From Candidatus Spongiisociaceae bacterium (GTDB taxonomy: Bacteria; Actinomycetota; Acidimicrobiia; Spongiisociales; Spongiisociaceae), in assembly GCA_965262915.1 (NCBI GenBank), contig OZ253564.1, positions 1,792,001 through 1,856,000 of the forward strand: 64,000 bases of DNA, given 5' to 3'. Position 1 is the stretch's first letter, and every line of letters begins with the position of its first letter. Under the pieces are notes generated by a model. The model was not told the origin of the DNA and ran no database searches. It worked only from the letters and a program-made list of their open reading frames with translations. Positions 57,679 through 61,726 of this stretch are shown here, in pieces. A program made the translations under genes and the position numbers.

Positions 57679-57850
57679 AACCCGGATCGGTCCACCGGCT
57701 CGAAAGGCTGGAGGAGGAGAACGAAATCCCCTACTTGGGGGCGATAGTGCCGTAGGCTGGTGCCGTATCGGTGTCGATGGGTGAGATGACGGTGTCCTGC
57801 GTCTTTGGTAAGAGGGTCCGGGGTTGTCGTTCCTGCCTGAAGGAGCTGCC

Positions 57851-58576
57851 ATGAGGAAGCTGGTTTTGCTGGTGGCGGGGCTGGTGCTGACTGCGGTTGC
57901 GTGTGGCGGCGATGACCAGTCCGAAGAGACGACTACCACCAGCCGCCGCACCACTGCTACCACCAGAGCCGCGCCGGTGGTGGAGAGTGAACCTACCACC
58001 ACCGCGATCCCCTTCGAGGATGAGGTTGTCGAGATCTCCCCCACCACTCTGCCCGAGGATGAGGAGTCCGTCACCACCACCGGCGGTGCGATGCAGGAAG
58101 AGACCGTGTTGACGATCGATGCCGTGGTCACGCTGCGAGCTCTGGGCCCGGTACGGATCGGTATGACGGTGGACGAGGCGTCGGCCGCGGCCGGTGCGCC
58201 GCTCCGTAAGGACTTCGGTCGGCAATCGACCGGCAGTTGTCACTACGTGACCGCCGGGGAGGCGTTGCGAGGCGTGGCCTTCATGGTGGTGGACGGTCTA
58301 ATCGCCCGTATCGAGGTGGACCGTCCCAGCCCGGTGGGCACAAGGTCGGGTGTCAGGATCGGGACCTCCGCCTCCGACCTGCGGAGCGTCTATCCCGACA
58401 ATATCCAGAGAGCCAACGACGCGGTGGCCGGCGGTGAGGCGTTGGCGTTCGTGCCTAACGACGAATTCGATGCCAACTACCGGATCTATTTCGAGATCGT
58501 GGACGGAGCGGTGGCCCGTTACCGCCTCGGAATCAAGCCGGCGGTCGACTTCCTGAACGGATGCGCGGAGGAATAG
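57851..58576 (+). CDS. Lipoprotein of unknown function
   Basis: MRK-hydrophobic-LTAVAC lipobox, Thr/Glu-rich linker, LGPVRIGM and TRSGVRIG motifs. Confidence 0.8.
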   Translation: MRKLVLLVAGLVLTAVACGGDDQSEETTTTSRRTTATTRAAPVVESEPTTTAIPFEDEVVEISPTTLPEDEESVTTTGGAMQEETVLTIDAVVTLRALGPVRIGMTVDEASAAAGAPLRKDFGRQSTGSCHYVTAGEALRGVAFMVVDGLIARIEVDRPSPVGTRSGVRIGTSASDLRSVYPDNIQRANDAVAGGEALAFVPNDEFDANYRIYFEIVDGAVARYRLGIKPAVDFLNGCAEE

Positions 58577-58607
58577 TCAGGTGTCAGACACCCCAGGCGC
58601 GTAAATG

Positions 58608-59829
58608 TCAAGCTGCGGCTCGGTCGATGGTGGTTCGGTGTGCCCAGGCGGTGTGTTCGTTGTGGGGGGTTTGGTGTTTGAGGCAGCCGTGGAGGATGCC
58701 GACGAGTCGGTTGGCTAGGGCTCGGAGTGCTTGGTGGTGGAGGTCGCCGGCTGCTCGTTTCTGGTCGTAGAAGGCTCGGGCTCCTGGGCTTGGGGTTAGG
58801 GAACAGAACGCCCATTGGTCCAAGGCGTCGTAGAGACGCCGCTTTTCGGACGTGGCGGGCCAGGACAGCACGTTTGCGGCCCGACGCCACGGTGATGGGC
58901 GACGTTCCGGCGTAGTTCCTGCGAGACTTGGCGCTGGTGTAACGGTGGGGGTCGTCCCCGAACTCACCGAGCGCCCGGGCGCCGAGCACAGTACCGAGTC
59001 CTGGCTGGGAGTGGTAGATGACGGCGTCCGGGTGCTGCTCAAAACGGGTCTGGAGGGTTGCTTCGAGTTGGCTGATCTGGCGGTTGGCCTCCCCAATGAT
59101 GCTCACCAGTGCCCCGACAGTCGCTCCGAAGGCGTCCTCAACCGGCCCCGGTGCGGCGAGGTGAGCAGCTCGGAGGCCCGCTTGGATACGGCGGGCGACC
59201 GGATCGAGGTTGCGTCGCCGTCCGCCCCTTTTGAGCGCAGCTCGGATCTGGGGCAACGTCAGGCGAGCGCCCATGCTGGGGGTGGGTGCCCGACCCAGTA
59301 CGGCCACAGCGTCGGAATGGGCCAGGTCAGCGAACGTTTCCAGCGCTGCGGGATAGTACTCGCGCAGAGCGTTGCGGACCTGGTTGGTGTGACGAGTCCG
59401 AGCCCAGATCAGGTTCTGATGGGTTCTGGCCACGATCTTGATACCTTCCGATTCGGGGCTGTCACCGGCCACGGGACGGTGGTTGTGACGGTCGGTGCGT
59501 ACCAGATCAGCTAACACCTTGGCATCACCGCGGTCTGATTTAGCTCCGCCCAGGCTGTGACGGTCCCGGTAGCGGGACACCGCCCTAGGGTTGATCGCAT
59601 ACACCACATAGCCCGCCGCGACCAGCGCACCGACCCACAGCCCACGATCGGTCTCGATGCCTACCACTACCTCAGCCGCATCCGATGCGTGCTCGGCGAC
59701 CATCTGGTGGAACCTGGCTATACCTTGGATCCCTTCCGGTATACGGGCGAACCCCAGCCGGGTCCCACCCTCGTCCAGCAGATACACATCGTGGTGGCCC
59801 TCAGCCCAGTCGTTACCCACAAAAATCAT
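58608..59829 (-). pseudogene. IS110 transposase/recombinase with one +1 frameshift near the C-terminus
   Basis: VGND, GIETD, KSDRGDA (DEDD); YAGTSP..ASG; frame switches at the T4 run 58843-58846 into KRRLYDALDQWAFCS...ALRALANRLV. Confidence 0.88.
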
Positions 59830-59874
59830 CTTCGCCTCCCTCGTGCGGATCGATTCTTGCCGAGCTGTGGAGAA

Positions 59875-60062
59875 CGCCTGGCGGCGACCTAATGGATCAG
59901 TGCTCTGTGGCACGCCACCCCATGAGCGCTACAAGCGGCCCTCGCGAACCGGCCGGGGTACGATCTGACACTAGGAATCAGCGTTCCGGGTGCCACCAGT
60001 ACTCACCGGCCGGCCAGCTCAACCACCACACCCTCCCAGACAAACCGGCAGAAGTGGTGGAC
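59875..60062 (-). ncRNA. IS110 bridge RNA (predicted; ends approximate)
   Basis: 5' hairpin, then two internal loops whose strands match the target flanks and the donor junction. Confidence 0.85.
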
Positions 60063-60091
60063 CCCCATTAGGTGTCCCACTGTATTAGCAC

Positions 60092-61726
60092 CTAGCTATG
60101 TCTGTACCAGTCGACGTGTTCCGGGGGGAGTTGGGGGTTGCCGAGGATCATGTCGGCGGCCCGCTCGGCGATCATCATCACCGGGGCGTAGATGTTGCCG
60201 TTGGTGATGTTCGGCATGACCGAGGCATCGACCACCCGCAGGCCGTCGATACCGTGGACCCGTAGCGAGTCGGGATCCACCACCGCCATCCTGCCGGCTC
60301 CCATCCTGGCCGTGCCGCACGGATGGAGGGCGGTCTCGGCGTCCTTGGCGACCCAGGCGAGGATCTCCTCGCCGGTTGTCACGCCCGGCCCGGGTGACAA
60401 CTCCCCTCCGTTGAACTCCTCGAGTGCCGGCTGGTTGAGAATGCGGCGGGTGAGGCGCACGGCTTCCACCCATTCCTTGCGGTCCGTCGCGGTCGACAGA
60501 TAGTTGAAGCGCAGCCCGGGTTTGTCGAACGGATCAGCCGACTTGAGGAAGATCTCGCCGCGGGCGTCCGAGTACATGGGTCCTGCATGTACCTGGTAGC
60601 CGTGCCCACCGGAGGGTACGGACCCGTCGTAGCGGATGGCGATCGGGAGGAAGTGGAGCATCAGGTTCGGGTAGGTCACCTCGTCGTTGCTCCGGATGAA
60701 CCCCCCTCCTTCGAAGTGGTTGCTGGTTCCGGGACCACGGCGGAACAGCCACTGGAGCCCGATCCAGGGTTTCCGCCACGGGGCCAGATGAGGCTGGAGC
60801 GAGACCGGTTGCTTGGAGGCGTACTGGATGTAGACCTCCAGGTGATCCTGGAGGTTCTGCCCCACGCCGGGCAGGTCGGCGACCACATCGATACCCAGCC
60901 CCTCGAGGCGCCCGGCGGGACCGAGGCCGGACAGCATCAGGAGTTGGGGCGTGTTGATAGCGCCTCCGCAGGCGATGATCTCGTTGCCGGTCACCCTGCG
61001 CAGGCTCCGGGCCTTGCGGTATTCCACCCCGATGGCCCGCATGCCGTCGAAGAGGATCCTGGTGGCGTGGGCCCTCGTCGTCACGGTGAGGTTCGGTCTT
61101 GCGATCACCGGATGAAGGTAGGCACGGGCTGCGCTGAGGCGGCGTCCCCGGTAACGGTTGGCGTCGAAGGCGGCGAAACCCTCCTGCCGGTAGCCGTTGA
61201 CATCGGTCGTGCGTGGGATTCCGGCCTGCTCGCCGGCCGCGAAGAACGCCTGGAAGAGGGGGTTGGTGGCCGGGCCCCTCTCCAGGATCAACGGTCCCGA
61301 TCCTCCCCGGTAGCGGTCGGTTCCCGCCAGGGTGGTCTCGAGCCGTTTGAAGTAGGGGAGGCAGTGGGCGTAGTCCCAATGGGACATCCCCGTCTGCGAC
61401 GCCCATTTCCGGTAGTCCAGGGGATTACCCCGCTGGAAGATCATCCCGTTTATCGAGCTCGATCCTCCGAGTACCTTCCCCCGGGCGTGATATACACGCC
61501 GTCCACCCATGTGCGGCTCGGGCTCCGATTCGTACTTCCAGTCGTAGAACCTCGACCCGATGGGGTAGGTGAGGGCTGCCGGCATGTGGATGAAGACGTC
61601 CCAGCGGTAATCGGGCCGGCCCGCTTCCAGAACCAGGACCCGGTTGGAAGGATCGGCGCTCAGCCGGGCGGCGAGGGCGCATCCCGCCGAGCCCCCGCCG
61701 ACGATGATGAAGTCGTAGGCGCTCAT
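60092..61726 (-). CDS. betA: Choline dehydrogenase (GMC oxidoreductase)
   Basis: [59 protein letters not shown]. Confidence 0.92.

Follow-up and report, generated by a model that had tools for sequence, protein, structure and literature searches.

In IS621 of Escherichia coli, an insertion sequence of the IS110 family, a recombinase with DEDD and serine motifs is combined with a bridge RNA encoded in the long left end of the element, upstream of the recombinase gene. As published (PMC11208160, PMC11208158), this RNA consists of a 5' hairpin followed by a target-binding loop and a donor-binding loop. The guides on the 5' side, 8-9 nt long, address the bottom strand, and those on the 3' side, 4-7 nt long, pair with the top strand; the CT core is included in the pairings and position 7 of the donor tolerates a mismatch (PMC11208160). 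Handshake guides located just 3' of the right target guide (RTG) and the right donor guide (RDG) pair with positions 6-7 of the opposite, and not of the cognate, DNA (PMC11208158), and in the excised circle a promoter is formed anew over the core (Durrant et al. 2024, PMC11208160). Elements of the IS1111 group have the same recombinase family and follow the same RNA-guided logic, with the RNA in a long right end and long subterminal inverted repeats (PMC11208160); ISPpu10 and ISPpu9 of Pseudomonas putida insert in short, repeated, multicopy intergenic sequences, the targets being palindromic and REP-type or single conserved intergenic sites (10.64898/2026.03.19.712850, PMC12288879); and CazIS110-1 of Caloranaerobacter azorensis, a Firmicute element studied at the bench, depends on a bridge RNA and has been argued to move by copy-out, a second pathway that involves only the target loop being described as well (bioRxiv 10.1101/2025.10.25.684509).

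Here we analysed a window of 64,000 nucleotides from Candidatus Spongiisociaceae bacterium (contig OZ253564.1, positions 1,792,001 to 1,856,000), in which the segment 60071..58586 of the minus strand is an IS110-group copy. As judged from sequence comparisons, its left end of 242 nt very probably codes for an IS621-type bridge RNA. The features that it shares with IS621 are the DEDD and Ser recombinase, an RNA located in the long left end upstream of the gene, the succession of 5' hairpin, target loop and donor loop, the lengths and strand assignment of the guides with the CT core included, the mismatch-tolerant donor position 7, and handshakes after the 3' guides. A candidate promoter motif was computed across the circle junction, with a hexamer TCTAAT that lacks the consensus A. 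The element differs from IS621 in its distant protein (406 vs 328 residues; with the intact sister copy L003 as query, the IS621 transposase 8wt6, which is the single solved relative, matched at E = 1.3e-7 over two partial stretches), in its donor GGGGTGT-CT-AATGG and its targets, and in the donor-loop basal stem, which was not found by RNAalifold with the guides either free or forced open, a candidate long-range helix around both loops being present instead. Furthermore, a permissive Rfam scan of 58400-60300 returned no family over the RNA region. Unlike the IS1111 group, it has a long left and a short right end (242 nt up to the ATG, about 22 nt after the stop codon), and in contrast to ISPpu10 and ISPpu9, with which it shares insertion in a short repeated multicopy intergenic sequence, one guide variant here aims at a direct tandem heptamer, (GACACCT)n. 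By analogy with CazIS110-1, copy-out would fit the many copies that reside together in this genome.

The original prediction had left it in doubt whether such a system had been characterised in this lineage. The kind is already known (IS621-type, Durrant et al. 2024), and NCBIfam names the protein an RNA-guided transposase; system, mechanism and annotation being already known, the locus opens no new question. In the literature searched we found no experimental study of this actinobacterial clade, members of which may be included in the supplementary lists of Durrant et al. 2024, and nothing on point about IS110 elements with tandem or heptanucleotide targets. The interest of the locus is that the bridge-RNA rules of E. 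coli IS621, namely guide order, strand rule, CT core, tolerant donor position 7 and handshake bases, hold in a distant clade that spans uncultured Acidimicrobiia associated with sponges and, besides these, Rhodococcus, Mycobacterium, Nocardia and Gordonia.

The element, its insertion site and its recombinase

By its domains, its match to NF033542, the layout of its ends and its CT cores, the element is classed in the IS110 group of the IS110 family. It has no terminal inverted repeats, and the same end bases were found in the 10 other full-length copies of the genome. On the minus strand, the left junction reads gtgggacac-CT-AATGG (CT at 60071-60070) and the right junction GGGGTGT-CT-gacac (CT at 58587-58586), so that both junctions read as had been claimed for a reconstructed target gggacac-CT-gacac and a donor ggggtgt-CT-aatgg. 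CT is present at both junctions in 10 of the 11 copies of this genome (the copy L009 is aberrant) and in most relatives.

The insertion point lies between two convergent genes, with a stop codon on either side (Table 1). The orthologous intergenic site was without the element, its flanking genes being adjacent, in all 7 of the same-genus genomes examined; judged from the sequences, the insertion of the window copy is recent. The empty allele GGGACAC-CT-GACAC itself was not readable in these 7 genomes, as the short spacer is too diverged.

The recombinase gene of the window copy had been described as frameshifted, and comparison with L003 located one extra base near 58846, which places the last ~75 residues in another frame. 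The frame is intact in 7 of the 11 copies and encodes 405-406 residues (406 in L003), whereas it is broken in L001 (the window copy), L002, L004 and L009. The Pfam domain DEDD_Tnp_IS110 (PF01548) matched residues 4-160 at 3e-33, over positions 1-155 of the 155 of the profile. Transposase_20 (PF02371) matched at 2.4e-7 over profile positions 6-66 of 87 only, because of the frameshift in the window copy. The protein of L003 passes the NCBIfam model NF033542, 'IS110 family RNA-guided transposase', with 181.7 bits for a cut-off of 140. In its alignment with IS621, KSDRGDA falls on KTDTVDA, which holds the second and third acidic motif, and ASG on ESG, which holds the catalytic serine; this serine lies upstream of the break in the window copy. 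The first D and the E of DEDD were recognised by eye only, in MIFVGNDW and VGIETD. The intact-frame stop codon TGA sits inside the right-end TTGACA (58606-58611, minus strand), so that the end of the gene and the -35 motif constrain each other.

Table 1. Coordinates of the element, of the parts of its putative bridge RNA and of its neighbours (positions of the window)
Feature	Coordinates	Strand	Remarks
Whole IS110-group insertion sequence	58586..60071	minus	1,486 bp including the CT core at both junctions
Left core dinucleotide CT	60070..60071	minus	left target gggacac on the left, right donor AATGG... on the right
5' stem-loop of the bridge RNA (CCACCAC... / ...GTGGTGG)	60023..60060	minus	minimum-free-energy fold
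Candidate long-range helix, 5' strand TTGAGCTG	60015..60022	minus	would enclose both loops
Target-binding loop (outer stem, internal loop, inner hairpin)	59947..60015	minus	RNAalifold covariation
Left target guide (LTG) GGTGGCACC	59989..59997	minus	top-strand sense of left target plus core C
Right target guide (RTG) GTGTCAG	59965..59971	minus	reverse complement of CT+gacac, 7/7 in the window copy
Target-loop handshake positions AT	59963..59964	minus	strand exchange would allow A to pair with T of donor position 7
Left donor guide (LDG) TGGGGTGGC	59914..59922	minus	8/9 identical to right-end TGGGGTGTC
Donor-loop inner hairpin GTGC-CACAGA-GCAC	59900..59913	minus	minimum-free-energy fold
Right donor guide (RDG) CCATTAG	59889..59895	minus	reverse complement of CTAATGG, 7/7
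Donor-loop handshake positions GT	59887..59888	minus	complementary to target positions 7 and 6 (C, A)
Candidate long-range helix, 3' strand CAGCTCGG	59860..59867	minus	probable 3' limit of structured RNA
Recombinase gene, broken	58608..59829	minus	ORF starts at 59829
Right end	58586..58611	minus	TTGACA (58611-58606), 17-nt spacer, left donor GGGGTGT, core CT
Neighbour, 544-aa ORF	60092..61726	minus	element adjoins its stop codon
Neighbour, convergent gene	57824..58576	plus	element adjoins its stop codon

Parts and fold of the putative bridge RNA

The four guide motifs that had been predicted on the minus strand, GTGGCACC (59996-59989), GTGTCAG (59971-59965), GGGGTGGC (59921-59914) and CCATTAG (59895-59889), are all present at these positions, and their order LTG-RTG-LDG-RDG, the strand rules and the CT core agree with the IS621 conventions given in PMC11208160. 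The place of the LTG was right, but the 8-nt GTGGCACC is better read as the 9-nt GGTGGCACC (59997-59989), which has the core C as its last base; the base that faces the core T differs among members of the family. In the window copy, this LTG is identical to the flank at 6 of 9 positions, or at 7 of 9 if one G:T wobble is counted, and the sole mismatch of the LDG is at donor position 7.

The 5' hairpin, the GGCCGG...GTAC stem and the GTGC hairpin of the original prediction were all recovered in the minimum-free-energy fold, the energy of which is close to that of shuffled sequences (z = -1.66; 11 of 200 shuffles at least as stable). RNAalifold, applied to 66 unique left ends, returned 29 pairs, among which 14 show compensatory changes; all 14 belong to the target loop, where they lie in its outer stem and its inner hairpin. 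The four pairs of the donor-loop inner hairpin are invariant in all 66 sequences, and this hairpin is therefore neutral on pairing and gives no covariation evidence. At the 5' stem-loop, relatives with different yet self-complementary arms were seen by eye in the alignment (unscored). In 44 of 45 unique sequences, a pairing of the TTGAGCTG : CAGCTCGG type comprised 6-8 of 8 positions at best, with replacements of T:A by C:G, and the observed mean was reached in 22 of 2,000 trials of a swap control, results which lend modest support to a long-range helix enclosing both loops. The RNA had been thought to end at 59875; with this candidate closing helix it probably extends to about 59860.

The agreement of the guides with the target and donor of the window copy, as originally claimed, proved to be of unequal weight. 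The occurrence of such matches by chance was estimated in composition-matched shuffles of 59875-60062 (200,000 for the exact reverse complements, 20,000 for LTG and LDG). An exact reverse complement of CT plus the right target was present in 1.7% of the shuffles, and one of CT plus the right donor in 0.48%; the exact 7/7 matches of RTG and RDG occurred together in a fraction of 8.5e-5. On the other hand, a 6/8 match for the LTG was reached somewhere in 68% of the shuffles and a 7/8 match for the LDG in 27%, and these two matches, being at chance level, are meaningless by themselves. On the sequence evidence, the real support for the bridge RNA is the comparison of copies.

Guide sets of the copies in the same genome

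The genome, a single contig of 5.06 Mb, contains 11 full-length copies with 85-100% identity, in addition to fragments. When their left ends and flanks were aligned, the donor loop was nearly constant, while both sides of the first loop varied with the DNA outside the element. Five target-loop guide sets were distinguished, each matching the flanks of the copies that carry it: RTG GTGTCAG with flank CT-gacac (L001-L004), RTG GTGCCAG with CT-ggcac (L006, L007), RTG GTGCTAG with CT-agcac (L005), LTG AGGCTCC and RTG TGATAG with flanks aaggctc-CT-atca (L008, L010, L011), and LTG GAATGCTCC with flank ggatgctc-CT (L009). Within the first set, a T-to-C change in the LTG of L004 fits its flank cgacac. 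For the 8 unique pairs of this genome alone, the observed value was reached by 78 of 10,000 shuffles for LTG and by 4 of 10,000 for RTG. The 11 copies form a compact natural set of guides and targets with one shared donor, which could be a starting point in designing orthogonal recombinases for high-GC hosts.

Covariation of guides and flanks across relatives

Species-representative genomes were scanned for relatives; 242 were confirmed and 80 of them fetched. By record title they comprise Acidimicrobiia MAGs (several of them Candidatus Spongiisociaceae or Spongiisocius), Rhodococcus, Mycobacterium, Nocardia, Gordonia and others. Both ends were called by motif in 77 of 91 loci, one of which (L045) was a false call and was dropped. 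In the alignment of the 66 unique left ends, the hypervariable columns fall exactly on LTG and RTG, the two sides of the first loop, and the guide sequences differ widely between lineages.

Covariation was measured in guide/flank pairs taken from this genome and from those of other Actinomycetota, of which 67 were unique once identical combinations had been collapsed. The LTG matched 5.55 of 8 non-core bases, compared to 2.64 (sd 0.16) with shuffled flanks, and the RTG 4.36 of 5, compared to 1.89 (sd 0.13). Neither value was reached in any of 10,000 shuffles, and the result was the same without the pairs of the own genome (59 pairs), although these figures overstate the significance somewhat because related copies are not independent. 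The comparison of homologous copies that had been proposed as a check of the prediction was thus strongly positive.

The handshake positions were compared in the same manner. In 56 of 60 unique cases, the first base of the donor-loop handshake is the Watson-Crick complement of target position 7 (mean of the shuffles 33.9; 56 reached by none of 10,000), while it pairs with position 7 of its own donor in only 8 of 60. In the target loop, the handshake A is opposite the donor T in 60 of 60 unique cases, with cognate pairing in 7 of 60; this A is invariant and therefore carries no covariation signal. The second handshake positions are weak, the donor-loop value of 19 of 60 being reached by 546 of 10,000 shuffles.

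The donor guides vary little overall. In relatives, the LDG variants GGGGTG and GGGATG track the right end, and in two loci (L059 and L061) an RDG CCATTGG is found together with a left end CCAATGG, which represents a two-sided change at the core (T to C in the core, A to G in the RDG).

Circle junction, expression and proposed mechanism

No promoter-like site was found in the integrated window copy. When circle junctions were computed, a TTGAC[AGT] motif followed after 17 or 18 nt by a hexamer was present in 54 of 54 unique junctions, and the hexamer was TCTAAT in 52. This hexamer combines donor position 7 and the core with the three bases that open the left end; it is without the A at position 2 that is required by the sigma-70 pattern used. 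The right-end TTGACA and the junction-spanning TCTAAT would form a promoter on the circle and, by analogy with IS621, RNA and recombinase would probably be transcribed mainly from the excised form. The region 59771-60072 is covered at about 91-100% identity by contigs of three sponge metatranscriptome runs and of one run of uncertain type; these are assembled contigs, some of which reach flanking DNA, so that carry-over of DNA is possible and start, end and strand are not deducible from them. One contig, from a run labelled as possible RNA, shows 0 differences over 59941-60074. These RNA-library contigs are a weak hint of expression.

In the mechanism that we propose, the bridge RNA would comprise the 5' hairpin, a loop for target binding and one for donor binding. 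The two sides of the latter, TGGGGTGGC and CCATTAG, would read the element's joined right and left ends, and the two handshake nucleotides after each 3' guide would, once the first strand exchange has taken place, pair with the opposite DNA. RNA binding, the chemistry of strand exchange and expression from the circle are those that we infer from the work on IS621; the sequence, the covariation of the structure and that of guides with flanks were observed here. As its recombinase is frameshifted, the window copy can be mobile only if a sister copy supplies the protein.

Alternative explanations

The reading that we consider most seriously besides this one, and nevertheless as somewhat unlikely, accepts the bridge RNA for the family and regards the window copy as a dead relic, untranscribed when integrated, without a working recombinase and immobile, its guides being a fossil of the last insertion. 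The frameshift near 58846, the 0 promoter-like sites of the integrated copy, the broken frames of 4 of the 11 genomic copies and the solo left-end and right-end fragments scattered in the genome are all in line with such a fate. However, the first 649 nt of the window copy, which include the whole RNA region, are identical to those of the intact L003, and only 45 differences were counted over the 1,486 bp, a near-identity which means that the decay happened recently. No damage is seen in either end or in any guide, any of the 7 intact copies could supply a matching recombinase in trans, and the contig without differences over 59941-60074 speaks, weakly, for transcription.

The two other alternatives concern the origin of the agreement between guides and flanks. 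If the protein alone picked the target, the left end would be a leader or regulatory region and the guide-like matches would be terminal repeats and chance, as the chance-level LTG and LDG matches of the window copy, the unremarkable stability of the fold and the barely varying donor-loop guides, which could be conserved protein-binding sites, might suggest. Yet the flanks lie outside the element, and two left-end stretches of variable sequence nevertheless follow them (67 unique pairs; none of 10,000 shuffles), five guide sets fit five target classes in one genome while the donor loop remains nearly constant, a handshake position tracks target position 7, and the core change from T to C in L059 and L061 has its counterpart in the A-to-G change of the RDG. 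Targeting by the protein alone is already contradicted by this covariation and is very improbable. Even less probable is that the agreement arose from copies duplicated together with their flanks, without any choice by the RNA. In favour of segmental duplication, L008 (G000:C1:4420448-4421937) and L010 (3638542-3640031) have identical flanks, over at least 39 nt to the left and some 30 nt to the right, which indicate a repeated or duplicated segment and not independent sites. Identical guide/flank pairs were, however, collapsed before counting, the flanks of most copies are unrelated beyond 10-15 nt around the core, with no long shared blocks, and the signal persists in the 59 unique pairs from other genomes. 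A bridge RNA encoded in the left end thus remains the preferred reading.

A repeated heptamer as target and predicted self-pairing of the guides

The GTGTCAG variant of the bridge RNA would aim at the heptamer pair GACAC-CT-GACAC, which is common in tandem arrays of the same genome. The degenerate heptamer GACACCT/GGCACCT forms 86 dispersed arrays of 3-23 units (for example at G000:C1 372874-373034, 1214138-1214291 and 1659792-1659938). The 12-mer GACACCTGACAC occurs 72 times and GGCACCTGGCAC 217 times, and a 21-mer of three heptamer units gave 103 matches with at most 2 mismatches, compared to 0 for the reversed control. Five of the IS copies (L002-L006) are located no more than 60 bp from heptamer arrays.

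The direct repetition in the target makes LTG and RTG complementary to one another, and the free RNA is predicted to have them paired: the probability of the RTG being unpaired is 0.15-0.25, compared to 0.74 in the L008 type. This predicted self-pairing might hinder the use of the guides. One could go further and view the clade as a case of natural bridge-RNA reprogramming, in which a single genome joins at least five target loops to the same donor loop, one of them aimed at a dispersed (GACACCT)n microsatellite whose period makes the guides pair and closes the loop, self-pairing and long-range helix together acting as a brake or switch on guide availability. This extended reading is speculative and in our view unlikely; a brake or switch of this kind has not been described for IS621.

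Variant, rearranged and fragmentary copies

Three copies that belong to different subgroups (L004, L009 and L011) carry the RDG CTGCTAG, owing to a common three-base change from CAT to TGC at the equivalent of window 59891-59893. Two further changes 5' of the LDG are shared by these copies and also found in L010. The identity of this RDG with the left end is only 3-4 of 7, or 6 of 7 counting G:T and U:G wobbles, and a left end starting with CT-AGCAG, which would suit it, was searched in the genome and not found. The shared change suggests an exchange between copies or a second donor specificity.

The usual right end ...CCTGGGGTGT-CT (...GGGGTGT-CT) is replaced by ...CCTGGG(G)ATGCTC-CT in L009 (G000:C1:290128-291612) and in L015 (near G000:C1:4804800). 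L009 is located 1.3 kb from L011 and has a 10-bp direct repeat, GGATGCTCCT, at both junctions; its left and right flanks are two variants of the 31-copy repeat GATGCTCCTATG.... From this sequence context it is probably a nested or rearranged, decayed copy. A repeat starting with GATGCTCCTATGGTTGTCAA(A/G)TCG..., found at 31 sites of the genome (for example G000:C1:466552, 677250 and 1759285), represents the class of target found for L009 and, in a related MAG, for L027. By its sequence it looks like the end of another mobile element, and one IS110 subfamily thus appears to aim at another repeat family.

Among the solo left-end and right-end fragments of the genome, several left ends are preceded by ...cagcac(c/t)ctc-CT (for example at G000:C1:4518975, 4967434, 2945834 and 36164), which is the target class of L026-L031, L039-L042 and L057 in related MAGs. 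These solo left ends appear to be left over from a further subfamily, of which the genome contains no full copy. In another relative, the locus L073 (CAVXGQ010000004.1) has a left end CT-GCTGGGG instead of CT-AATGGGG, preceded by a sequence resembling the 3' part of the donor loop (...ACCATTAGGAAG), and looks like a rearranged or tandem arrangement.

Finally, the Rfam family RF02464 (Actinobacteria sRNA Ms_AS-4) matched positions 58927-59008 of the plus strand with 84.8 bits (gathering score 50), antisense to the recombinase gene and over its conserved GLGT...GEFGDDP region; this family may perhaps be just the opposite strand of IS110-type transposase genes.
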